Shown here: one piece after another, positions 1-53,096 of the stretch
Position numbering within the stretch: the first letter of the stretch is position 1
Layout of the letters: the number at the start of each line of letters is the position of its first letter
Assembly (NCBI GenBank): GCA_026770705.1
Contig: JANJGN010000012.1
Location: 108,624,001-108,688,000, forward strand
Source: Isurus oxyrinchus
Taxonomy: Eukaryota
Reading direction: 5' to 3'
Length of the DNA: 64,000 bases
The notes under the pieces: generated by a model
Told to the model about the DNA's origin: nothing
Databases searched by the model: none
The model's input: only the letters and a program-made list of their open reading frames with translations
Translations under genes and position numbers: made by a program

Positions 1-1154
1 CACCAAGAGAAGTGTAGTATTGGACAGAGCCCTGTGTAGAAGCAAGTATGGAGATAGCTCCTAGCTTGGATCTTTACCGTACCAATGTATATAGTTTCTA
101 GTCATTAATAAATACTGTTAAACTACTGAGGACTACAAACATCTTAATAAGACCTACTGAACTACAATATGGTGGTGGCGAATGGAACAATTGAAAGCCT
201 TGAAGAGGCTGCAAAAGAAAACTAAAGTCCTGAAAAACTGAAGGAAAAATGAAAGAAGCATTCTGACCTGAAAAAAGGCTTTAGAAGCAAAGGTACAGAA
301 GGAAATCACCAGAGAAAAGTTCCAAAGAAAGGCTTGGGAGTTGAAAGCAGGAAATAAATTCCTCACCTCAGCAGAAGAAGCCATTGGACCCTGTGAAAGT
401 CCAGCTACAAGACCCAGAGTGTGCTGAGTCAGCAGACCTAGCAGGGGTGAGCTAGAAATTTAAAATTCCTGGACAGAAAGTTAAATACTGCAGAGGCCAG
501 AAATTACAGTCCGAGAAATCAGATTCCCGAGCCGGTGCCTGAACACGAGGTGGCTGAGCTTGCTCCGAGCAAAGGAAAAAATTAATTAAAAACTGATTGC
601 AATCATGTAGGCAACATTAAAAACCCAGCTAAAGCCGGGATTTGACGCTTCCAAGACCTGAGAACATTGGGTTAAAGCAGAGAAGACTCAAGCCAGTTGA
701 TCCAGGCAACCATTGCTGAAAAAATTTAAATGCTGAGATCATGAACACCATTACTGTGGGAGCCCACCAAAGTCACCAAGCACCGGAAAACCCTTTGTGA
801 AGAAGCATGTAACAGCGCCTTTTTGGATTTTATGAAACATCTTAAAGCTGAACCTGCAATTTAAAAATTTTAACCATGGATCAGAAATCCACTCTTTCAG
901 ACCAGTTTGGGCTTATGCAAGGGCCAAACCTGACATAAAATTGGGTCTCCTGGAGAAGAACATTTTCAAATTACATTAGGTTTAGGTAGGAACTCAGAAG
1001 AAGTCAAGACTAATACGCTTTATACTCATTCAATAAATTTGCTGATGAGGTAATGCATTAGTGAAGACTCAACCAGCTTCGATGAAACATGACAAGCCTT
1101 CGACAAATACTTTAACCTTCAAGTTGTGAAGCCTGCAGAGCTTAAAAAGAGGGA

Positions 1155-3638
1155 TAGAAACATAGAAACTAGGAGCAGGAGTAGGCCATTCAGCCCTTCA
1201 AGCCCGCTCCACTATTCATTATGATCATGGCTGATCATCCAACTCAATAGCCTGCTCCTGCTTTCTCCCCATATTCTTTGATCCCTTTTACCCCAAGAGC
1301 GATAGCTAACTCCTTCTTGAAAATATACGATGTTTTGGCCTCTACTACTTTCTGTGATAGTGAATTCCACTCTCTGGGTGAAGAAATTTCTCCTCATCTC
1401 AGTCCTAAATGGTCTACCCAGTATCCTCAGACTGTGACCCCTGGTTCTGGACTCCCCCACCATCGGGAACATCCTTCCTGCATCTACGCTATCCAGTCCT
1501 GTTAGAATTTTATAGGTTTCTATGAGATCCCCCCTCATTCTTCTGAACTCCAGCGAATATAATCCTAACCGACTTAATCTCTCCTCATATGTCAGTCCCG
1601 CCATCCCAGGAATCAGTATGGTAAACATTCACTGCACTCCCTCTATAGCAAGAACATCCTTCCGCAGATAAGGAGACCAAAACTGCACACGTTATTCCAG
1701 GTCTCACCAAGGCCCTGTATAATTGCAGAAAGACATCCCTGCTCCTGCACGCAAATCCTCTGGCTATGAAGGCCAACATACCATTTACCTTCTTTACCGC
1801 CTGCTGCACCTGCATGCTTACCTTCAGCGACTGGTGTACGAGGACACCCAGGTCTCGTTGCACATTCTCCTCTCTCAATTTATAGCCATTCAGATAATAA
1901 TCTGCCTTCCTGTTTTTGCTACCAAAGTGGATAACCTCACATTTATCCACATTATACTGCATCTGCCATGCATTTGCCCATTCACTCAGCTTGTCCAAAT
2001 CACAGCTCACCCTCCCACCCAGCTTTGTGTCATCTGCAAATTTGGAGATACTACATTTGGTTCCCTCATCTAAATCATTAATATATATTGTGAATAGCTG
2101 GGGTCCCAGCACCAATCCCTGTGGTACCCTACTAGTCACTGCCTGCCATTCAGAAAAAGACCCATTTATTCCTACTCTTTGTTTCCTGTCTGCCAACTAG
2201 TTTTCTATCCATCTCAACAAACTGCCCCCAATCCCATGCGCTTTAATTTTACGCACTAATCTCTTATGTGGGACTTTGTCAAAAGCCTTCTGAAAGTCCA
2301 AATTAACCACATCCACTGGCTCTCTCTCATCAACTCCACTAGTTACAATCTCGAAAAATTCGAGTAGATATGTCAAGCATGATTTCCCTTTCATAAATCC
2401 ATGCTGACTCTGTCCAATTCTGCCACTGTTTTCCAAGTGCTCAGCTATTAAATCTTTTATAATGGACTCTAGAATTTCCCCCCCCACCAGGCTGACTGGT
2501 CTATAATTACCTGTTTTCTCTCTACCTCCCTTTTTAAATAGTGGGGTTACATTAGCTACCTTCCAATCTGTAGGAACTGTTCCAGAGTCTATAGAATCTC
2601 AGAAGATGATCACCAATGCAGCCATTATTTCTAGGGCCGCTTCCTTAAATGCTCTGGGATGTAGATTATCGGGCCCTGGGGATTTATCAGCCTTCAATCC
2701 CGTCAATTTCCCCAACACCATTTCCCTACTAATACTGATTTCTTTCAATCCCTCCCTCTCACTAAACCCTGAGTTCCCCAACATTTCTGATACATTATTA
2801 GTGTCCTCCTTTGTGAAGACAGAACCAAAGTATGTATTTAGTTGGTCAGCCATTTCTTTGTCCCCATTATAAATTCCCCTGTTTCTGACTGTAAGGGACC
2901 TACATTTGTCTTCACCAATCTTTTCCTCTTCACATTCCTATAGAAACTTTTACAGCCAGTTTTTATGTTCCCTACAAGCTTACTCTTGTACTCTATTTTC
3001 CCCTTCTTAATCAATCACTTGGTCCTCCTTTGCTGAAATCTAGAGTGCTCCCAATGCTCAGTTCTGTTGTTTTTTCTGGCCAATTTGTATGCCTCTTCCT
3101 TGGATCTAACACTATCTCTAATTTCCCTTGTGAGCCATGGTTTGGCCACCTTTCCTGTTTTAGTTTTGCGCCAGACAGGAATAAACAGTTAACAAAACAA
3201 AAACAGAATTACCTGGAAAAACTCAGCAGGTCTGGCAGCATTGGCGGAGAAGAAAAGAGTTGACGTTTCGAGTCCTCATGACCCTTCGACAGAACTTGAT
3301 TTCGAGTCCAAGAAAGAGTTGAAATAAGAATAAACAGTTGTTGCAGTTCACCTATGTACTATTTGAATGTTTGCCATTGCCTATCCACCGTCATTCCTTT
3401 AAGTAACGTTTCCCAATCCATCATAGCCAACTTGCGCCTCATACCACTGTAGTTTCCTTTATCAAGATTCAGGACCCTCGTCTCAGAATCAAATACGTCA
3501 CTCTCCATCTTGATGAAGAATTCTATCATATTGTGGTCGCTAATCCCCATGGGGCCTCACACAACTAGATTGTCAATTATTCCTTTCTCATTACACAATA
3601 CCCAGTCTAGGATGGCCTGTTCTCTATATGGTTCCTCA
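1155..3638 (-). mobile_element. CR1 LINE, 5'-truncated, inserted in LTR copy 1
   Basis: RT motifs DFQKAFDKVPH, VPQGLVLGPQLF, KFADDTK, YEERLSRLGLYSLEFRRMRGDLIE; short repeat 3' tail near 1155. Confidence 0.95.
3191..3327 (-). mobile_element. Short Penelope pLTR-derived element with hammerhead-like motif
   Basis: 12-bp TSD GAATAAACAGTT (3179-3190 / 3328-3339); minus strand agttCTGTCGAagggtcatgaggactcGAAACGTCaact. Confidence 0.75.
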
Positions 3639-3918
3639 ACAAAAGGGCAAAAAAAACTACTCAAGCAAACCACACGAGGGCACCAAAATGCCAACACATT
3701 TCCTGCACTGCAACAGCAGGTGGCAGTGCTGAGCCAGGTATAGGTCTGGAACAAATTAAGACTTTGCCAGAGCAGATCTGACTAACACTGAAATCGAAGT
3801 GAACGACAAGGAAAAACCTCTGCGGCAGGCAAAGAAAGAAAAGGCAGAAGTAAGATCGGAAAATGTTTATATCAAAGCTGAACTTGAAGATTTGAAACAC
3901 AAGATTCAAGCTGACTAT

Positions 3919-4132
3919 TTCGATTCCTTCACCCCACCCCACCCCCACTAGAGCTATCTGTTCCTTGCTTGTCCTGCTTTCTACCCTTAATTAGCACATT
4001 CCTTAGATAATATCACCACCTTCAACACCTCTTTTCTATTTTTACATGTTGAAGAGTCATACGGACTCGAAACGTTAACTTGTTCCCCTCCGCAGATGCT
4101 GCCAGACCTGCTGAGTTTTTCCAGGTATTTTT
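3919..4132 (+). mobile_element. Short Penelope pLTR-derived element
   Basis: 15-bp TSD ATTCAAGCTGACTAT (3904-3918 / 4133-4147); gaagagtcatacggactcgaaacgttaac. Confidence 0.78.
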
Positions 4133-4249
4133 ATTCAAGCTGACTATGTATCTTTGGAAACACATGATAAACTAAAGTCTTCAATGAACCAAACTTTTCA
4201 AGATCTGAACAATTTTCTGAGATGTCACAAAGGCTCAAGGAGGCTTCGA

Positions 4250-4720
4250 AAGAGACAGAAAGGTTGGGAAAGAATTGCTGATGTATCTGAACAGTTGCTT
4301 GAAAAGCAGAATTAACAACCAAAACCTTTTTAAATTCTTGAACTTAGATCCCGTCAGAACAACATGTAGGATGAGATGCGCAGTATTGAAGAACAAATCC
4401 AGATTTCAAAAGCAGATAAGGAAAATTCTAAGAAACAGATTGAAGGTCTAACGAAGGAATTGAAAGAGTCTAAGGAGCAGTCAGTGGCCATGGAAGACGC
4501 ATTCTCAAAGGAACCGAATGCCAAGGAAAAGCTGCTAAGCTTATATAAGAGATCCGCAGATAACCCTGAAACAAAGATAACCTAACTTACCCGAGTAGTT
4601 GTGGAGCTGAATGAAAAGACTCTTAAGCTCAAAAAACAACTGGAAAATAAGAGAGTAAGCAAAGGTTTGGGTACAGTCGTGAAACAAGTGGAAATGAAGG
4701 TTCCATTTTTGAAATGTCAA
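4250..4720 (+). pseudogene. TPR: Captured TPR fragment in LTR copy 1
   Basis: MRSIEEQIQISK..LTKELKESKEQSVAMED..LLSLYKRSADN..; KQLENKRVSKGLGTVVKQVEMKVPFLKCQ (TPR [27 protein letters not shown]). Confidence 0.75.
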
Positions 4721-7458
4721 TCCCAACATCCATTGCACTGAACCGCACGAAGAAAGAAAAGGAAAACACATTGTATGGATGAGCTGAGAGTTCATTCTCC
4801 TGTAGAGAACAAGATAAACGAATGACCATCCATAACCAGAAAACAGGGAATCAACAAAGAGTGATACAATGCCAAGGAATGGTGAAAGAAGATGCCAGAA
4901 CACCCTCCAATTCAACCAAGTTTACCTGTAGCGATAGAGCTTACCACTCCTCTGAAAGTAGTGAGAAGATATGGGAGGATCATAAGGCCTCCAGACCGCC
5001 TGAACCCATGAACTCAGAAACTTGAGGGGACAGATGGGGTGGTAGTAATGATAATAATAAATACATGGGGCAAACTGGGATGATTTGTAATTACATCGGA
5101 TAAAGAATTGAGGGGAGGTGTTTTTTTTTAACTCATTCACGGGATGTGGGCTTCGCTGGCTGGGCCAGCATTTATTGCCCATCCCTAGTTGTCCTTGAGA
5201 AGGTGGTGGTGAGTTGCCTTCTTAAACCGCTGTAGTCCATGTGGTGTAGGTAAACCCACAGTGCTGTTAGTGAGGGAGTTCCAGAATTTTGACCCAGCGA
5301 CAGTGAAGGAACGGTGATATATTTCCAAGTCAGGATGGTGAGTGACTTGGAGGGGAACTTCCAGGTGGTGGTGTTCTCTTCTATCTGCTGCCCTTGTCCT
5401 TCTAGATGGTAGTGGTCATGGGTTTGGAAGTTGTTGCCTAAGGAGCCTTGGTGAATTCCTGCAGTGCATCTTGTAGATGGTGCACACTGCTGCTACTATG
5501 CATTGGTGGCAGAGGGAGTGAATGTTTGTGGATGTGGTGCCATTTAAGTGGGCTGCTTTGTCCTGGATGGTGTCAAGCTTCTTGAGTGTTGTGGGAGCTG
5601 CACTCATCCAGGCAAGTGGAGAGTATTCCAACACACTCCTGACTTGTGCCTTGTGGTTGGTGGACAGGCTTTGGGGAGTCAGGAAGTGAGTTACCCATCA
5701 CAGGATTCTGCCTCTAACTTGCTCTTGTAGCCACAGTATTTATAGGGCTAATCCAGTTCAGTTTCCGGTCAATGGTAATCCCTAGAATGTTGATAGTGGG
5801 GGATTCAGTGATGGTAATGCCATTAAATGTCAAGGGGCAATGATTAGCTTCTCTCTTGTTGGAGATGGTCATTGCCTGCCACTTGTGTGATGTGAATGTT
5901 ACTTGCCACTTGTCAGCCGATGCCTGGATATTATCCAGGTCTTGCTGCATTTGGACATGCTTGGACATGGACTGCTTCAGTATTTGAGGAATCTCGAATG
6001 GTGCTGAACACTGTGCAAACATCAGCTAACATGCCCTCTTCTGACCTTATGATGGAAGGACTGTCATTGATGAGGCAGCTGAAGAGCGTTGGGTCCAGGA
6101 CTCTACCTTGAGGAATTCCTGCAATGATGTCCTGGAGCTGAGATGACTGACCTCCAACAACCAAATCCATCTTCCTTTATGCTATGTATGACTCTAACCA
6201 GTGGAAAGTTTTCCCCCGATTCCCATTGACTCCAGTTTTGCTAGGGCTCCTTGATGCCACACTCAGTCAAATCTGGCCTTGATATCAAGGGCAGTCAATC
6301 CCACCTCACCTTGGGAGTTCAGCTCTTTTGCCCCTGTTTGAACTAAGGCTGTAATGAGGTCAGGAGCCGAGTGGCCCTGGTGGAACCCAAACTGGGCGTC
6401 AGTGAGCAGGTTATTGCTAAGCAAGTGCTGCTTGATAGCACTGTTGATGACCCCTTCATTACTTTACTGATGATCAAGAGTCAACTGATAGGGTGGTAAT
6501 TTGCTGGGTTGGATTTGTCCTGTTTATTGTGGACAGGACATACCTGGGCAATTTTCACATAGCCAGTTGCAGCTGTACTGGAACAGCTTGGCTAGGGGTG
6601 CAGCAAGTTCTGGAGCACAAGTCTTCAGAACTATAGCTGAATATTGTCAGGGCCCATAGCCTTTGCACTATCCAGTGCCTTCAGCCATTTCCTGATATCA
6701 TGTGAAGTGAACCGAATTGACAGAAGATTGGCATCTGTGATGATGGGGACCTTCAGAGGCTGAGATGGATCATCCATTCGACACTTCTGGCTGGAGATTG
6801 TAGCAAATGCTTCAGCCTTATCTTTTGCACTGATGTGCTGGGCTCCCCCAACATTGAGGATGGGGAGATTTGGGGAGCCTCCGCCTCAAATGAGCTGTTT
6901 AATTGTCAACCACCATTCATGATTGGATGTGGCAGGACTGCAGAGCTTAGTCTGGGTCAATGCCCAGAATGCAACCTACAGTGAGAAAAAGACCTGGACA
7001 GTGCACTGCCACTGGCAAATCTTAAACATTTTTTAGCTGTGCATTTTTCTTGGTACATGGCGTTGTTCGGAGAATATTTACATGGGCTGTTCCACTCTAA
7101 TCATCAGCCCAGGCTAGGGGGTAGCTCTCATTGGTTGTGGGATCGCTTAGCTCTGTCTGTCACTTGCTGCTTTATTGTTCGACACGAAAGTAGTCCTGTG
7201 CTGTAGCTTCACCAGGTTGACACTTCTTTTTTAGGTATGCCTGGTGCTGCTCCTGATATGCCCTCCAGCACTCTACATTGAACCAGGGTTGATCCCCTGG
7301 CCTAATGGTAATGGTAGAGTGGGGGATATGCTGGGCCATGAGGTTACAGATTGTGTTCGAGAACAATCGTGCTGCTACTGATATTCCACAGTGCCTCATG
7401 GATACCCAGTCTTGAGTTGCTAGATCTGTTTGAATTCTATCCCATTTAAAATGGTGGT

Positions 7459-9279: not shown

Positions 9280-9839
9280 TTTCATTCTTTTTTGAGCCTT
9301 TGTAGCAGTTTTACACAACTGAGTGGCTTGCTAGGCATTTAAGAGTCAACTACATTGCTGTGGGGCTGCAGTCGCATGTGGAAAAGCAGATTTCTGGCTT
9401 TAACAACAATCATTAGACTTTTAGAATTCAAATTCCACTTCTGCTGTGGCAGAGCATTACCCTGGATCTCTGGATTACTAGTCCAGCGACAATACCACTA
9501 CATTATTGTTTCCTTGTGTCGTCTAAGATTCTGGCATATAAAAGGTTAACGTGGGAGTGAGTACAGTACCACTCCACCCCCCTACCCTCCAGAGTGATAT
9601 AAGAGAACACATGACCTGCACCTAGGAATCAGTGTAGTGTTGGACCGAGCTGTAAATAGAAGCAACCATGGAGACAGCGCCTAGTTTGGACCTTTACTGT
9701 ACCTATGTATATCGCTTGTAGTAGTTAATAAATACTTACTGTTGAGCTACCTAAGACCAGGAGTACCTTAATAAGACTTATAAAACTATGCCCAACATCT
9801 TACAACAAAACCCATATTACCTTCCATAACAGAGGAAAT

Positions 9840-10140: not shown

Positions 10141-11799
10141 CACTGCTTAAGATACACATTTATTGGTGAGCACATGTGTATTTTCAAACTGAACTTTAAT
10201 TTTGAGGAGTCGGTCACACTGAAAGTCAGTAAGAAGTCAAACAGAATTAATCAGGCCTCAGCATTGTTCAGTTTGGATGATAGCGACGAGAAAGCTTAAC
10301 TTTACATGGCACATTGTGTCTGTTTCCAGAGATCTCAGCACCACTGCAGCAATAGTGATAATCCATGTAGAATTAATGGCTTTGATACAAATGAGATGGA
10401 AATCCTCAAAAGGCTAAAAGAGCTCAAAACAAATAACACTGCAGGGATGGATGGTATTTATCTCAAAGTATTAAAGCAGATAAGGCAGAAGATTTCTGAA
10501 ACACTGAAGGTCATTATGAGGGAGTTGAACATGGAGGAGCTACCAGTGGTTTGGAAACAGGCTGATATGCTGCCTGTTTTCAAAAGGGGCAGAAAAATAG
10601 TCTTATTTTAACCTGTATAAATTAATGGAATCAACTATAGAAGTGAACATGAAGGTCATCTCCACAAGAACTGCATCTAGCATGGATTCAAAGAGGAATA
10701 TCCTGACTTATTTGAACCTATGACATCTCAAGTAGACAATGTGATGTCCCTTGAACTCCAAAAAGCATTTAACACATAAAAGGTTTTAAGTTAAGTTCAA
10801 AGTTGTGGGGATTCAGGGTAAATCTTTGGATTGGATAACAAAACATCTGCAGAATAGAAAACTGTAGAATAAGTGTCAAGCACATTTAGGGTTAACATGG
10901 GACTGAGTGCAGTACCGCCAAAATATGTGACCCGCACCTAGGGGGTCAGTCTAATATTGGACAGAGCTGTGTGTACTACCAAGCATGGAGACAACTCCTA
11001 GCCTGAACCCTTTATTGTATATATGTACATAGCTCTTGTAGTTAATAAATACATACAGCTAACCTACTTAAGACATTTCATTAAGCCCTACTGAATGATA
11101 TCCAACACCCGGCAACATGTTGTCAGGGAATGGAAAAACCCAAAACCTTGCAAAAAATGCAGAGAAAAACTAAAATCTTGCAAGGTTAAACAAAAATTCG
11201 AAGAAGTATTCTGACCTGAAGAAAAGCTCGAGAAGCAGATATGCAGAAAAAAAATCGCCAGGGAAAAGCTCCAAAGAGTGGCTTGGAAGCCGAAGGCAGA
11301 AATTGAAAATTCTTCACTACAGCAGAAGACTCCACAGGTTCCCTAGGAATCCAGCTTCAATTCCCAGAGTGCAGAGTCAGTAGACCCAGCAGGAGTGGGC
11401 TAAAACTTAAAAATTCCAGGATATAGGAAGAAACTTTTGAATAGCTCCATCAGAAATATCAGATTCCCGAGTCGGCGCCGAACACGTGGCATCCGAGCTC
11501 GCTCTGTAACGGAAAAAATAATTAATTTGTAAGAATTGTGACTAAAGAATCAGCTGTGAAGACCAGCAAAGGCCAGTATTCAATTCTTTCATGACGCTAA
11601 AGCGGAGAAGTCAGCAGCTAGTCGATCCAAGCTGCCATTGTTTAAAACAGTTTCAAGGCTGAGTGTGAGTGCTATTACAGCAGAAGCCCACCAAAACCCG
11701 CAAGCGTCTTCAAACGAATGGTGGCACCATCTTGGATGTCAGCAAATTCTTAAAGCTGAACCTAGACTTTAAAATTTTTTAACCGTGGATTAAAGTCCA

Positions 11800-12055
11800 A
11801 TTTACCAGATCAGTTTGGATTCATCCAAGGGCCAAACCTAATGGATAATTGGGAGTCCTGGAGAAGAGAATTTTTAAACTACCAGGATACATCAGGTCTA
11901 AGTAGAAAGTCAGGAAAGGTCCAGATTAATACCATTTTATACTGGTTTGGTGCACTTGCTGATGAAGTAATCCCAATGTAGTGCATTGATGAATCCTCAA
12001 CCAGCTTCGATGAAATATTAAAAGCCTTTGACAAATATTTTAACCTTCAAGTTGT
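11800..12055 (+). pseudogene. Gypsy gag N-terminal remnant
   Basis: LPDQFGFIQGPNLMDNWESWRREFLNYQDTSGLSRKSGKVQINTILYWFGALADEVI..SFDEILKAFDKYFN, a typical Mag/K02A2.6-like gag start. Confidence 0.75.
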
Positions 12056-12189
12056 GGAGCACACAGAATTTAAAAAGAGGCACAGAAAGCCCCCAGTAAA
12101 GTGCTGAAAGGAAAAAAAACAATACTCAAGTAAACCTCATAAGGGTGGCAGAGAGGCAGGGAACTTTCTGAAAGTCTCAGAAAGATATC

Positions 12190-12700
12190 TTTTTAGAAAT
12201 CCTGACACATTACTTGAACTGCAACAGGTGACAGTGTAGACCAAGCAGCTAGATGTATACTAAAAGCTAACTATTGAAACTCAAAATAAACAAACCCTGC
12301 AAACGGGAAATGAAATAAGGTTGGAAAGTGTTTCTATCAGAACTGAATTGGAAGGTTTGAAACTCAAGATTCAAGCTGAGAATATATCCTTGGAAATGCG
12401 TGAGGCATTGAAGTCATCAATGAATCAAACTGTTCAAGATCTGAACAAACACATTTTTGAGGTGCCACAGAGTTATAAGAAAGAGACTAAACAGCTGAAG
12501 AAAATGGTTAGACATTTGGAAGAAAACTTGGAAAAACATTACATTTCCAAGGAGATATATGAAGAGATGAAAATCAAAAACTTAGAATGGCAAGAGAAAG
12601 TAGAAGTTCTCACAAAAGAACGTGAGGAGTCTCAAAAACAATTAGCAAAAGCACAGTTACAGAATGCGATCTTGAACAATTGCACAGAGGAATTACTGAT
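12190..12700 (+). pseudogene. Captured UACA/RAI14/ANKRD24-family coiled-coil fragment inside LTR element
   Basis: ORF 12321-12761: KIQAENISLEMREALKSSMNQTVQDLNKHIFEVPQSYK..LEKHYISKEIYEEMK resembles the YxSxxxHExxKxSxN repeats of UACA/RAI14. Exact donor not determined. Confidence 0.55.
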
Positions 12701-12830
12701 CGGTGTAGAGAATCAACTTTCATGCACAAAAGTTGTGCAAAACTTACCAATTCCAGTCTAAATGTAATGGCAGTCCCTATGGAGATACACCTGTACCTAC
12801 TGCTATAAAGAAGATGATCTTTATAGAGAC

Positions 12831-13482
12831 GGATAAGGAAAAATGAGATCTAATGAGAAAACTGGGATGTTGCTCACAGATAGAAGAGCACTTGAAAGAG
12901 AGCTTGAAATGCTTAAATGACTAACTTGTAGAAACAAATTCAACAAAAAATTATCTTCAATTAAAACTTGATGAACTTCAAGCATCAGAGGTCTCTTGTG
13001 GGCATTGTGCTAAATGTTGAAGACAGGAGAAGGAATTGCTGATGAATCCGAACAGCTGCTTAATAGAAGGATTAACAACCAAAACTGATGAACTGCTTGA
13101 GCTTTAGTCCAACCTGAACAACATGAAGGGTGAGATGCGCAGTATGGAAGAGCAAATACAAACTTTAAAAACAGAAAAGGTGAATTCTACGGAACAGGTT
13201 GAGGATCTAACGAATGAATTGAAAGAGTCTAAGGAACAGTCAGTGACCATGGAAGAAAGATTGTGAAAAGAACTGAAGGCCCAGGCGAAGTTGTTAAACT
13301 TATATAAGCGATCTGTAGATAACTCTTAAATAAAAACAAAACAACTTACCAGAGTTGTTACTGAGCTGAATGAAAAGATTCAAAAGGTTGAAAAACAACT
13401 GGAAAAGAAGAAAGAAGTAAAAAATTTGGCTAAAATTGTGAAACAAGTGGGAATGAAGGTTCCATTGTTGAAATGTATGCGT
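12831..13482 (+). pseudogene. TPR: Captured intronless TPR N-terminal coiled-coil fragment inside LTR element
   Basis: Translation EK*DLMR..LQLKLDELQASEVS..QEKELL..TKTDELL..MEEQIQTLKT..VEDLTNELKESKEQSVTMEE..LNLYKRSVDNS..LTRVVTELNEK..IVKQVGMKVPLLK matches TPR motifs (QLKLDELQASDVS, TKTDELL, LKEAKEQQASMEEKF, IVKEVEAKAPILK). Several in-frame stops. Confidence 0.8.
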
Positions 13483-14070
13483 CAGAAGGAACTGCATGAT
13501 GAAAGAAGAGGAAAAAGCACTATGGGGGTGAGTACAATCTTCGTCCACCCCCCCCAAAAAAGGGATAAATCAACAACTATCTATCACCCAAACTGCCAAA
13601 TTGACAAAGGGTGGTTCAATACCAAGGATTAGAAAAAGACGATGAAAAGATTCCCAAGTGTCAGAACAACCTCCAAATCAACAGAGTTTCCACTCCCCTG
13701 ACAGTAGTGCAAACAAATTACGGAAGGGTAATAAGGTGTCCAGACTGCCTGAACCTATGAACTCAGAGACTTGAAGGGGGGAGATGGGGTAGCAATAATG
13801 ATGTAAATACATGGGGTAAACTAGAATAACATGAATTACGTTGGATAAAGGCTTGGGGGAAGATGTATAAGGGTTTGGCACATAAAGGGTTAACATGGGA
13901 CTGAGTACAGTTCTGGCCACATAGTGATGTAAGAGAACACATGACCCACACCTGGGGGTCAGTCTAGTGGTGGACAAAGCTGTGTGTGCAAGCAAACACG
14001 GAGACAGCTCCGAGCTTGAACCCTTTACTGTATATATGTACATAGTTCTTGAAGTTAATAAATAAACAGA

Positions 14071-14760
14071 GGGCAGGAGATTCAGGTCAGCGGGCAGGCA
14101 CGATCTGCAGGTCCGGGTTTGGCCAGGGAACGGACTGCCAACTGCGATCAGCCCCTGACCACGATTTCACGCTGGCTAGCCAATTAATGGTCAGTAATCG
14201 TGAAGCGCGCGCTGAAATGCTCAGCACTGCTGGGGTGGGGGCAGGAGGGCCGTGGGCACTGACTTAAGTGTGGGTGCGGGTGAGAGCAAGTGCTGAATGA
14301 AAGTTCCCTGAAGGCAGAGAGCTGCTCCAGGGAGCTGAAGAATTTAGAACAGTTAAATAAAGTTTGTAAAATAAGGGAAAAAATGTCCAAGCATCACAAT
14401 CAGTCACCTGAACATGAGTGTGATAAAAATGTTGTCCGTAGATTTTTTTTAAAATTAATGACGGAAACCTCATCCTGCCCTTGGATGAGGTTTCATGAAA
14501 AATGCAAAGTCCGCTTGGCCGATTCGCCCGTCCGCCAACCGTAGGTTGGGCAGACCACAAAAAATCAGAGACAATAAAAACTTTAATGACCTCAATAGGC
14601 CTCTTAATTGTTGTCGGGTGTGCACCAAAGTGCGCCCGCCGACTGTAATATTGCACTAGTGCAGGATGACATCAGAGCGCTCTTCCAAATGTCATCTCGC
14701 GCGATTTCACGTCTGATTGGGTCAGGCGTGCGCCTGAATGTTTATCTAAAAATCCTGCCC
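14071..14760 (+). mobile_element. PIF/Harbinger-type MITE in 3' LTR
   Basis: TIR gggcagga../..tcctgccc; 3-bp TSD AGA. Confidence 0.85.
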
Positions 14761-17434
14761 AGAATTAACCTATTTAAGACTACAAAGACTTCATTAAGAC
14801 CTATTGGACTGTATCCAATGCCCTACAACAAAAACAGCCGAAACTAGAGTATTTATTTAAAGGGAGGAGGAAGGCGAAGAAATGCTGTGTGGAGTGCCTT
14901 AAAGGTCAGTATTATAACATCAGGGGCTTGGATTCAGAAGCCCTGTGCTTTGGTCAGATCTGCAGATAATACCAAATGAGGAGAGGCAGCTGACCCTGAG
15001 GAGGAAATACAAAATTAGCTGCACAAAATATGTAAACGGGTAGAACAGTGGCAGGTGAACTTTAATACAGACAGTGTGAAGTATTGTTATATAGGGAGAA
15101 AAGCAGACAACATACATGCTCTGTGGATGGTGTTGAAATAGCTAAGATTTAGTTGAAATGATCTATGGGACTTAGCAGACCCAGCATTCAGCATGTCAGC
15201 TTCAGCAGGACAACGAACAACAAGCAAATAAAGCATTGGACAGCTGGTAAGCAGTGCAGCATTGGTCAGGGCATCTCATGCCAAAACTGTTAGTGCTTGT
15301 TAGATTCCTTTATAGGGTATTGTGGTCGATCGGGTGACCAGGACACCCAGGAAACATTCCAACACGGCAGTCAGTTAGGAAAACAGCCACAAGGCAGATC
15401 CTTCGAGGAGAAGGGCATCAAGAAAGGCTGTGGAAACTTACGCTTTTCAATTTCAAATAAAGGTAAATGAGAAATTATCTTATTGGAGTATAAATCATAG
15501 CAAACTGTATGGTGATGGTAGATCCAAAAATTACTTCAACTGATGTGTAGGGGTAAAACAAAGGGAGACAACAGCAAATTATTCAACAGTTAAGTTGGGA
15601 CTAATATCAGGAAGATTTTCTTCACGTAAAGAAAACTTTCTCTGAGTGATATAGTGACAGCAAAAACCCTAGAATTGTTTAAGAAACCACTGGATAACAA
15701 CTGGGGGCATTGTAGGGTCTTTCTGGATCGAGAAACTAAAATAGGCTGAATCGCCTTCCTCAATGGTTTTCATGATTAGCTGATAGCAAGTGGCAGAATA
15801 GCAGGGACTGTTGAATTGGCCAGTCATCAGGATATTTAGATGTAGCACATCAAGGCAGGAATGAGCTCCCATAAATAATGCCATCTCTCAGGGTTTGCTG
15901 CTGTTTTTAATCACCTGGAACCCAAGGATTCAAGGACCAGTCGCATCAGTATAACTGACAGGCATTTCAAAGATACTAGCTCCTTAAAATGTGATTAATT
16001 TCTAATGATTTACCAAAATTAAATGATTTGCTGATTCACTGCAAATACGTAACTATTATTTGAAAAAAAGGAATTGTGATAAGCTTAATTTAATCAAATC
16101 AGTGTCCAAAGAGCAACAGCACCACCTTGTGGTTTAGAGAGTGAAAGGTACCTTTGAACACAGCTTTAATACTAAAATCATGGGGCTAGATTTTGAACTA
16201 TATGCCCAGTTGTAAAGCTGGAAACAGTTTCCATAACAGCGGCTGATGTGCAAAGCATAGATTAATATCTAAGCGACAGGTTGAACATCTGCTCCACTGT
16301 TCCAAAATCACAATTACATTAGGGGTTACATTGCTGCTAAATTTGCAGACAACAATTTAGTGTGAATAAACTGATCATATATTTCCTTATTTAAAAGCAG
16401 AATGATTTGCACCAATATGAGCTGGTCAATGATGTAGCCATTTTATTAACTGCAGGTTTAGCTATAAGATAATTTTAGTTTTTAAATAAAGGACTATAAT
16501 TTGCTGCGGCCAAGCAACTAACAGTTTTTGCCGTTGGTAGATTTGCCCTTGCAAAATAGGAAATAGGAGGAAGGGTAGGCCATTCAGCCCCTCAAGCCTG
16601 CTCTGCCATTGAACTAGATCATGGCTGATCTTCTACTTTAACACTATTTCCCTGCACACTCGCCATATCCCTTGATGTCATTAGTGTCTAGAAATTCATC
16701 GATCTCAATGACTGAGCCTCCACAGCCCTCTGGGGCAAAGAATTCCAACAATTCACCACCCTCTGAGTGAAGAAATTCCTCTTCACGTCAGTCCTAAATG
16801 GCCTACCCCTTATTTTGAGACTGTGCCCCCGGATCTAGAATCCCCAGCCAGGGGAACCATATTTACTGCATCTACCCTGTTGAGCCCTGTCAGAATTTTG
16901 TATGTTTCAATGAGATCACATCTCATTCTTCTAAACCCTAGAGAATATAGCCCAATTTCCTCAATCTCCCCTTGTAGGACAACCTCGCCATCCCAGGAAT
17001 CAGCCTGGTGAACCTTCATTGCACTCCTTCTATGGCAAGTATATCCTTCCTTAGGTAAGGAGACTAAAACTGTACACGGTAGCTGTCTCACCAAGGCTCT
17101 GTACAATTGCAGCAAGACACTTTTACTCCTCTATCCAAATCTTCTTGCAATAAAGGTTAACATAGCACTTGTCGTGCACCAGCATGTTAGCTTTCAATGA
17201 CTCACGAACAAGGACAGCCAGGTCCCTTTGAACATCAACACTTCCCAACCTCTCACCATTTAAGAAATACTCTGCATAAATACTCTGTGGATAACTTCAT
17301 ATATTTCCACATTATATTCCATTTGCCATGTTCTTGCTCACTCACTTAACCTGTCTAAATCCCCTTGAAGCCTCTTTGCATTCTCCTCACAACTCACATT
17401 TCCACCTAGTTTTGTATTATCAGCTAATTGGAAA

Positions 17435-24806: not shown

Positions 24807-25451
24807 GGGCCTAAATTTCACCCACGACGATAGGGAAACAAACCACCCATCGCGATCGGCCACCAATTGCGATGTCACGCTGCCTGGCCAATTAATGGGT
24901 GAAAAAGTGTGCTGAAAAGCTCAGCACTGGCGGGGTGGGGGCGGGAAGAGGGCGGGTGATGACGTCTCTGTGACAAAGCTCCCTGAAGGCAGTCAGCTGC
25001 CTCTGGGAGCTGCAGGCCTGAAAATGCTCAACTAAAGGTTTCAAAAGCTGCAAAAAAAAACTGTCCATGCATCACAATCAATCACCTGAAAATATAGCTG
25101 ATAAAAACGCTGTCCACAGGATTTAAAAAAAAATTTATTCCAGAAGGAAAATTTTGTCCCGCCCTTGGACGAGGTTTGATGAAAAATGCAAAGTCTGCCT
25201 GGGCAATTCGCCCATCCGCCAACCATAAGGTTGAATGGGCCACGAAAAATCAGAGACAATTGAGCTGTTAATGGGCTTAATTGCCCTCTTAATTGTCAAC
25301 AGTTGCGCTTCTGACTTTTGTATGTGCCCGCCGAGGGAATTATTGCGCCAGTGCGCGTTGGCGCCAGGATGCTCACCCGACGTCTTCTTGCGCAATTTTA
25401 CACCCGATCGGGCCAGGTGCACGCCCGCCCATGGAACGTAAAGTTCTGCCC
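24807..25451. mobile_element. Harbinger MITE
   Basis: TIR gggcctaaattt / aaagttctgccc; internal blocks shared with 14071-14760 (ctccctgaaggcag, ggatgaggtttcatgaaaaatgcaaag). Confidence 0.8.
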
Positions 25452-52606: not shown

Positions 52607-53096
52607 GGACAGAATTTTGCCATCATCGGGCAGGCGTGGTGGGCGGGCCCGGGAGTGACCGGGAAACCGACCGCTGCCCCGAGCACAATTACCAGCCAGC
52701 CAGCGTGAAGCGTGTGCTGCAGTGCCCTGCGCTGCCTGGGTGGGGGTGGGGGGAGCACGAGCACTGAAGTTCACACATGAGCGCAGGGCACGCAGTAAAA
52801 GCTCCCTCAGGCATAGGGCTGCCTCAGGGAGCTGAAGATTTTTATCAACAAAAATGAACATTTTTAAAATAATGAAAACATGTCCCCTCATGTGACTCTG
52901 AGCAGGGTAACGTTGAACATGAGCGCAAAAAGTTTCTATTTTTTTTTAAATCACTTAAAACTCTTATGCGTGCCCACCAACTGAAATATCGTGCGAGTGC
53001 GTGATGACACGGGGCACTCGCCCAAAGTCATCACACGTCATTTTACCCTCAAGCATATCGGACAGATGCCCACATGCTGAGCAAAAAATTCTGGCC
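52607..53096. mobile_element. Harbinger MITE
   Basis: TIR ggacagaatttt / aaaattctggcc; TSD ATG. Confidence 0.85.

Follow-up and report, generated by a model that had tools for sequence, protein, structure and literature searches.

Coiled-coil pieces of UACA, ninein and TPR in place of pol in a decayed Gypsy-type LTR retrotransposon of a shark

Our results revealed an old, decayed shark LTR retrotransposon of Gypsy type in which coiled-coil sequence from three host mRNAs, UACA, ninein and TPR, is pieced together between a gag stub and the last part of pol. We consider it probable that this is a non-autonomous element in which pol was replaced by in-frame UACA, ninein and TPR sequence, that a helper moved it, and that its fused frame was under selection.

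Structure of the element and its host donors

The window, i.e., the whole stretch of DNA that was analysed, comprises 64,000 nt, and all coordinates below are positions in it (Table 1). The element is 4 kb long. A first-pass annotation had recognized its two TG..CA LTRs, 5-bp target-site duplication (TSD), primer binding site (PBS) and polypurine tract, all of which are confirmed, and it has no pol enzyme. Specifically, queries for protease (PR), reverse transcriptase (RT), RNase H (RH) and integrase (IN) matched nothing in the element but did match 10-11 of 14 control loci, in agreement with the annotated lack of an enzymatic core. The PBS is of the tRNA-Leu type: in other copies it reads TGGTGGCAGCG, complementary to the 3' end of the genome's tRNA-Leu genes (TAG, AAG). 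The LTRs differ by a K2P distance of 0.186. An unrelated repeat of ~700 bp with inverted termini interrupts the 3' LTR (~14068-14763), and stops, frame changes and a private 95-bp insert disrupt the window copy. Contigs of sequencing runs cover the locus and those of a second organism cross both element ends, which excludes an assembly artefact.

Table 1. Features of the element in the window
Feature	Position	Strand	Remark
5' TSD	10858..10862	+	sequence AAAAC
5' LTR, TG..CA	10863..11117	+	70-74% to LTRs of pol-bearing element L204
PBS	11118..11128	+	TGGTGGCAGCG in other copies
Leader	11129..11784	+	common to pol-bearing element and its gag+protease sisters; 73%
Gag N-terminal stub, ~85 codons	11785..12047	+	broken in window copy
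Linker	12048..12262	+	in frame between gag and UACA across family
UACA large exon, piece 1	12263..12479	+	75% to host gene on C25
UACA large exon, piece 2	12464..12577	+	87%; beyond inherited 753-nt deletion
Ninein large exon piece	12590..12694	+	79% to host gene on C19
TPR exon 3/4 junction	12688..12735	+	85%
95-bp insert	12736..12830	.	private to window copy
TPR exons 4-9	12831..13367	+	72%; introns absent, inherited 33-nt deletion
TPR exon 10 piece	13348..13406	+	beyond inherited 96-nt deletion
TPR exon 12 piece	13397..13472	+	beyond inherited 186-nt deletion
Segment also in gag+protease-only sisters	13499..13648	+	
Pol 3' end and 3' untranslated part	13649..13842	+	integrase tail ending YGRVIRCPDCLNL at 13760; 79% to L204
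Polypurine tract	13843..13863	+	
3' LTR	13864..14830	+	carries later insertion
3' TSD	14831..14835	+	sequence AAAAC

The gag N-terminus that had been annotated is present as a stub, but it begins near 11785 and not at ~11130 (11118-11784 is leader), and it ends at 12047, the point where intact relatives run on into the remaining gag. The stub had no sequence match in the PDB, and its predicted model has a pLDDT of 50; an Atlas match to PF03732 (0.88) serves only as a lead. At the other end, the YGRVIR tail aligns at 79% with the 3'-terminal part of the pol-bearing relative, as expected of the Gypsy pol tail described earlier.

The part between them that matches host genes (12263-13472) aligns with the coding DNA of host UACA, ninein and TPR, with 72-87% identity (E 1e-9 to 1e-87). 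The host origin suggested for ~1.4 kb of coiled-coil sequence is thus borne out, over a shorter length of 1.2 kb; the contribution of three separate genes, and the presence of the TPR piece in other element families as well, had escaped notice. The donor genes, named by protein matches, were located on three contigs of the genome, either as GT-AG-bounded exons or as long open ones. The ninein donor was found by a profile search, a search with the element as query having returned element copies and no donor. The TPR piece joins nine exons, collinear with the host gene and with the introns missing, whereas the UACA and ninein pieces each lie inside a single exon, so splicing is demonstrated for TPR only. 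The window's own short frames gave generic coil matches only in Pfam and PDB searches, and the first homologue search, with the mosaic frame as query, gave none. The ninein and TPR matches overlap by 7-8 nt, and in the long subfamilies UACA and ninein are separated by a 91-nt piece. The host pieces were likely picked up through template switching by reverse transcriptase, and the UACA residues date the capture to near the lamniform-carcharhiniform split.

Relatives, candidate helper and a shared TPR cassette

The further copies that the first-pass annotation anticipated do exist: 90 fetched loci carry host pieces, these being the loci examined from among more than 1000 search candidates, and further copies share switch points with the window element. 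A non-autonomous Gypsy element and a capture of host coiled coils, both part of the earlier reading, were found, and an autonomous element sharing the LTR and PBS has a candidate in L204, itself decayed. This element encodes its domains in the order PR-RT-RH-IN and matches the window family in LTR (70-77%), leader (73-77%) and tail (79-82%); the window family probably owed its movement to such a relative, which carries pol and shares its LTR. Searches for an autonomous partner of the older subfamilies found none, and family C was dropped as the window element's helper, its LTRs being unrelated. Among 20 loci picked by the tail, 13 are gag+protease sisters, which spread without host pieces.

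Paired zinc knuckles, a feature of the Mag clade (PMC5408684), occur in the gag of intact relatives (L142 and L193 translations) and are deleted in the window element. Families A (that of the window), C and D combine them with a tRNA-Leu primer and, in pol-bearing members, the PR-RT-RH-IN order; they are Mag-like, and family B is Gmr1-like, the clade names being based on features and not on an RT tree. The gag of family B matches PF02023 (SCAN) at E 2.9e-5, below the cut-off, which three protein relatives pass; integrase precedes RT in B's protein relatives, and the B copies themselves are without pol. A native charged coil is present in the Gmr1-like gag, and a helical stretch lies behind TPR in this family.

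The TPR cassette of the window family recurs in family B, together with its 96- and 186-nt deletions; there it starts in TPR exon 1 or 2, extends to exon 12 and lies behind protease. Part of it also occurs in a third backbone, and TPR residues ~110-235 are common to all three. Of the 90 A loci, 43 have the 96-nt deletion and 38 the 186-nt deletion; of 12 old B-type loci, 9 and 5 have them, respectively. In the TPR tree, A nests within old B. On these shared deletions and this topology, the TPR piece was likely captured once and then passed between element lineages. The alternative of independent capture by A and B was abandoned once older copies of B proved to carry these deletions too.

The Gmr1-like element with its cassette behind protease would represent the first step of such a history. 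The shared deletions and the tree suggest that the cassette then reached a Mag-like element and gained ninein and UACA pieces on its upstream side there, and a shorter part may have gone to the third backbone. The third step is seen in the window subfamily: it has the cassette, and its LTR, leader and tail are those of the pol-bearing family. Translation of the long open gag fusion could then have aided the element's own RNA in cis. We favour a loose role, with the coil acting as a sequence-tolerant oligomerising rod that may let the gag stub join helper particles; the open frame may also keep the RNA translated instead of degraded. Since insertion, the copies have decayed neutrally. A bolder version, which we hold tentatively and at somewhat below even chances, is that of a Jurassic-age accessory module: a TPR coil captured once, passed between Gmr1-like and Mag-like elements, enlarged by ninein and UACA, and held open for translation as a Gag-fused rod that aided elements without enzymes in hijacking helper particles.

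Reading frame and competing explanations

Across copies, the junctions of the fusion are in frame, as the postulated Gag-coiled-coil fusion implies. The gag start is in phase with UACA in 17 of 24 copies and the gag end in 20 of 28 (private indels allowed for), the UACA-ninein junction in 63 of 78 and the ninein-TPR junction in 61 of 74 (raw). For protease-TPR the counts are 11/14 and 5/10 in family B and 4/9 in the third family. The integrase tail is in phase in 7 of 15 copies raw, or 3 of 14 with private indels allowed for, and neither this nor the later start of gag supports the one continuous frame from ~11130 into the pol tail that had been envisaged. Unrepaired frames of single copies span junctions over 232 aa (gag-UACA), 299 aa (UACA-TPR) and 345 aa (protease-TPR).

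Selection likely kept the fused frame open while the families spread, as judged from inherited changes. All 13 inherited deletions are multiples of three, versus 72 of 324 private indels; shared sizes of 188 and 754 nt (4 copies each) are read as private indels adjoining the 186- and 753-nt deletions, and the non-coding control for inherited indels yielded one event, too few for power. Inherited changes comprise 38 silent and 66 missense, versus 1145 and 3209 private ones (ratio 0.62, p 0.024); in family B the counts are 8/17 and 73/167. The deficit of inherited stops is by itself non-significant (2/106, P 0.07). Amino-acid constraint on the captured part is weak at best. Comparison of two A subfamilies gives distances of 0.086 (0-fold sites), 0.133 (2-fold) and only 0.022 (4-fold), and copy-copy 0-fold/4-fold ratios of 0.8-1.1 point to neutral decay since insertion.

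The pieces could instead be neutral passengers, owing their capture and shuffling to the short repeats that A-rich, GAA/AAA-periodic coiled-coil mRNAs have in common with one another and with retroelement RNA, the in-frame joints being a by-product and the frame without function. The composition suits this account, the donors having 38-44% A, near pol's 36%, and A-rich coiled-coil codons alone favour in-frame switches (51-90% for repeats of 5-9 nt), yet a null matched for microhomology gives 6.4e-4 for 13 of 13, and although seven of these deletions have 5-13 nt of microhomology, six have 4 nt or less. Cassette-free sisters are common, and 4-fold versus 0-fold sites give no clear purifying signal; against this stand the enrichment of inherited changes in silent ones, the in-frame junctions between genes, and the absence of inherited stops from codon columns other than those of arginine codons open to CpG decay. 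We regard this explanation as unlikely, if still deserving real weight.

TPR has a role in holding back unspliced RNA. At the nuclear basket, a fragment of it might pair with the host protein and loosen the retention of unspliced element RNA, which would account for the spread of the cassette between lineages and leave UACA and ninein as padding. Residues ~110-235, present in all three backbones, and the oligomerisation of TPR's N-terminal coil (PMC12954347) are in line with this idea, but some A subfamilies have lost much of that core (117- and 255-nt deletions), several long-UACA copies retain only the last TPR pieces, and conserved TPR residues are altered in A and B alike. Further, the effect would work in trans and benefit all elements, and we think the idea improbable. 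That the coil is a native gag- or env-like retroelement protein or a domesticated host gene, its host similarity a coiled-coil artefact, has next to no probability in our view: the generic Pfam matches and the native coil of the Gmr1-like gag would fit, but the reading is refuted by exon-by-exon DNA matches to three host genes (72-87%, nine collinear TPR exons, no introns), and the copy-copy ratios indicate neutral decay after insertion.

Relation to known gene captures

Acutely transforming retroviruses carry gag-onc fusions, with spliced host sequence in place of pol, and depend on a helper. The shark element shares this layout, with Gag joined to spliced host sequence, but has a Gypsy backbone, no env and no signalling gene, and spread in the germ line with structural rods as its cargo. 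The parallel with these viruses drawn in the first-pass annotation therefore holds for the layout and not for an oncogene or env, and closer precedents are found among LTR retrotransposons such as maize Bs1 (PMC5131818).

Capture of several genes by LTR elements is already known (Tan et al. 2016, PMC5131818). In Bs1 and animal LTR-mediated retrocopies, partial mRNAs replace internal ORFs between LTRs, with three parental genes combined in Bs1 and four in one mouse retrocopy; the same report describes microhomology at switch points, spread as non-autonomous elements and a parental frame that is often kept. The shark element is alike in its host mRNA pieces, several genes per element and non-autonomous spread. 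However, Bs1 is present in 1-5 copies and the animal cases are young loci of few copies, in contrast to the numbers reported here; the shark frame outlived many deletions, each donor is a long coiled coil, and a single cassette likely passed from one distant LTR lineage to another. That paper's main text does not contain the word "shark". Wheat RLG_Sabrina/WHAM elements (PMC9744471) are likewise high-copy, lack RT and IN, need an autonomous partner, and include gag-protease-only forms beside forms with foreign replacement ORFs, but those ORFs are virus-like or without host homologue, unlike spliced host genes fused to gag. In bdelloid retroelements (PMC5408684), an acquired ORF is similarly common to diverse element types, although it is separate, enzyme- or env-like and carried by pol-bearing elements, whereas in the shark in-frame host coils replace pol.

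In the literature searched, we found no precedent for the high copy number, the retained frame or the cassette transfer. If our reading is correct, a vertebrate gene capture has grown into a high-copy element family and is not a one-off retrocopy, and a captured cassette has crossed deep LTR lineages, which would imply co-packaging and recombination between them. It also makes testable, by counting, the question of why non-autonomous LTR elements retain coding frames. Finally, such elements strew TPR-, UACA- and ninein-like pseudo-exons across shark genomes, and these can enter gene models (P0281); all 150 of the TPR-domain matches scored were above the Pfam cut-off.

Structure, host donors and age

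The element lies where the first-pass annotation placed it, at 10863-14830, flanked by the target-site duplication AAAAC, and both ends are crossed by contigs from a second organism, with a flank difference of about 2-3%. Protease, RT, RNase H and integrase gave no match in it, while the same queries matched 10-11 of 14 control loci, which bears out the reported loss of the pol core. The primer site in other copies is TGGTGGCAGCG, complementary to tRNA-Leu genes of the host genome; two of three loci scanned for tRNA were tRNA-Leu and one was called tRNA-Trp. The 3' LTR contains a repeat (~14068-14763) bounded by inverted ends and 3-bp flanks, to which 24852-25425 and 52798-52885 are related; it resembles a non-autonomous DNA transposon, presumably Harbinger-like by its features.

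Structural features of the window element
Feature	Position	Remark
5' LTR	10863-11117	
Primer site	from 11118	
Polypurine tract	13843-13863	
3' LTR	13864-14830	contains later insert, ~700 bp

Capture of host coiled-coil genes, also proposed there, is confirmed by host exons located for UACA, ninein and TPR. Specifically, the UACA donor is an open exon of 911 codons on contig C25, which matches a Carcharodon cluster at 99% identity and other sharks at 77-84%, pointing to a probable lamniform host. A ninein profile from 12 natural frames matched 10 cartilaginous-fish proteins, nine of them named ninein (best E 3.6e-34), with the host exon on contig C19. Pfam PF25481 (TPR) matches natural frames of the copies, and the best genomic match in a TPR-domain search is a host exon bearing splice sites; host TPR exons 1-12, named from fish proteins, have GT-AG at all junctions and join into a stop-free frame of 465 codons. 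The window element matches parts of exons 3-10 and 12, collinearly and without introns. The UACA and ninein portions are longer in older subfamilies, and deletions differ there.

At 20 of 23 UACA sites that changed in the host's own lineage, the copies keep the residue that the host has lost; they carry the host residue at 7/8 sites common to lamniforms and carcharhiniforms, and the carcharhiniform residue at 2/14. Capture of UACA would therefore date near the split of these orders, which is Jurassic.

Across 4.98 Gb of host genome, a 521-bp query returned 1707 first-look candidates, which are not copy numbers; of 40 scored, 39 were loci besides the window element, at 80-86%. Host pieces are present in 90 of 95 loci assigned to family A (Mag-like elements with the cassette), a set picked by similarity searches and so not random. 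In the window's subfamily, complete copies span about 3.2 kb. LTR-LTR K2P distances have a median of 0.20 (range 0.13-0.27, 16 pairs; window element 0.186), and 0-fold and 4-fold sites give near-equal distances between copies (ratio 0.8-1.1), as expected of dead copies.

Three members of the element's family lie within 15 kb of one another in the window. A rearranged copy at 1-5121 holds a gag stub, a LINE insert, UACA and TPR pieces and the tail, with the piece normally 3' of UACA before it, and a family LTR at about 9521-9760 is probably solo. The first 47 residues of P0281, a public shark amino-acid transporter gene model, match the family and, judged by that match, appear to be exonised or misannotated element sequence.

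Reading frame and constraint

The first-pass annotation suggested testing for one continuous frame from gag through the pol tail, which we assessed by comparison among copies in place of a consensus. The upstream part was supported. After allowing for private indels (those of a single copy), gag start and UACA are in phase in 17/24 copies (raw 7/25) and gag end and UACA in 20/28 (raw 14/28); the UACA-ninein and ninein-TPR junctions are in phase in 63/78 and 61/74 (raw), and natural frames span these joints within single copies. The integrase tail was not supported as in frame with the upstream part (7/15 raw, 3/14 corrected).

Each of thirteen deletions common to at least three copies (33, 51, 96, 102, 117, 126, 144, 186, 201, 255, 282, 450 and 753 nt) has a length divisible by three, which is true of 72 of 324 private indels. 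Deletions of 188 and 754 nt, each in four copies, were treated as variants of 186 and 753 and excluded. Neutral shuffling promoted by periodic, A-rich sequence might produce such a pattern, given that short repeats within the donor genes are themselves mostly in frame. For this reason the null was matched to each deletion's microhomology, and 13/13 still gave a product of 6.4e-4, which argues against this explanation.

Evidence for selection on the captured part, where a rate comparison had been suggested, is divided. Among inherited substitutions (common to several copies), 38 are silent, 66 are missense and 2 look like stops, versus 1145, 3209 and 247 private ones, with a missense/silent ratio of 0.62 relative to private (p 0.024) and a stop deficit at P 0.07. 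When actual codons are read, only one column has stops in 70% or more of a subfamily (4/5 copies); it is an arginine codon, interpreted as a CpG hot spot, and two further stops that recur often fall at host CGA codons. Between two subfamilies, 4-fold distance (0.022, 51 sites) is below 0-fold distance (0.086, 321 sites; 2-fold 0.133), and inherited substitutions in family B (Gmr1-like elements with a putative SCAN gag) look neutral, both of which count against strong constraint. Neutral shuffling is nevertheless an unlikely explanation. Because deletions and junctions keep frame while residue constraint is weak, frame appears, from these comparisons, conserved more than residues.

The host pieces were likely acquired by template switching onto co-packaged mRNA, an established capture route (PMC5131818). 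Selection likely favoured an open gag-fusion in cis, in which the coil would serve as a rod that oligomerises and tolerates sequence change; the N-terminal coil of TPR oligomerises fusion proteins (PMC12954347). The gag stub ends before the portion retained in intact relatives, and a search of PDB gave no sequence match for gag. That the captured TPR fragment instead interferes with host TPR seems very improbable.

Probable passage of the cassette among backbones

The best TPR-domain matches below the host exon are family B elements, in which TPR is joined to protease behind a gag that probably bears SCAN; in protein relatives of this family, integrase precedes RT. Loci L057-L070 and L173-L184 are of this type with TPR in frame, and a helical stretch lies 3' of TPR in 13-14 copies. 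TPR from exon 1 or 2 through exon 12 is present in 12 older loci, of which ten match a B backbone. A 96-nt deletion is present in 43/90 family A and 9/12 old B-type loci, and a 186-nt deletion, whose microhomology is just 3 nt, in 38/90 and 5/12. In a TPR tree (32 rows, host root), family A forms a single clade (0.997) nested in old B (0.89-0.92).

A third backbone, derived from the pol-bearing family C, is represented by 12 loci (in L142, L153-L164 and L180) with family C gag, half a protease, TPR exons 4-7, preceded in most by a B-type gag piece, and an integrase tail, in phase in 6/10. The simplest reading would be a single capture of TPR in family B followed by transfer to A and to the third backbone, the latter transfer resting on the B-gag piece because the shared deletions fall outside its TPR part.

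An autonomous element with the same LTR was sought among 20 loci selected by tail plus LTR: two had host pieces, 13 protease only, three no pol or host match and one integrase, and the last, the candidate helper L204, carries PR, RT, RNase H and IN. L204 and the window element have in common the LTR, the leader as far as the gag start and the tail, but not the middle of gag; three older-subfamily copies have little or no sequence in common with L204. Because the ends match L204 while older subfamilies hardly do, we infer that the window's subfamily is a recombinant, with ends from the L204 family and cassette from older elements. Older A LTRs (L105, L115, L133; L071, L107, L124) match those of the window's subfamily little or not at all; therefore, the whole cassette would have switched LTR backbone at least once more.

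LTR-mediated gene capture is known, and these elements are a variant that differs in copy number, three coiled-coil donors, an apparently retained frame and the probable passage of one cassette between distant lineages. Searches of open full-text literature, including PMC5131818, PMC5408684, PMC9744471 and PMC12954347, gave no description of them; an unnamed entry may exist in Repbase or Dfam.

Sisters with only gag and protease (L190-L208) are common, share the window element's LTR and have about 0.6-0.8 kb of other sequence in place of RT and integrase. Close to a family C element, locus L139 (oriented 197-1204) has a 336-codon actin-like frame that lacks introns.
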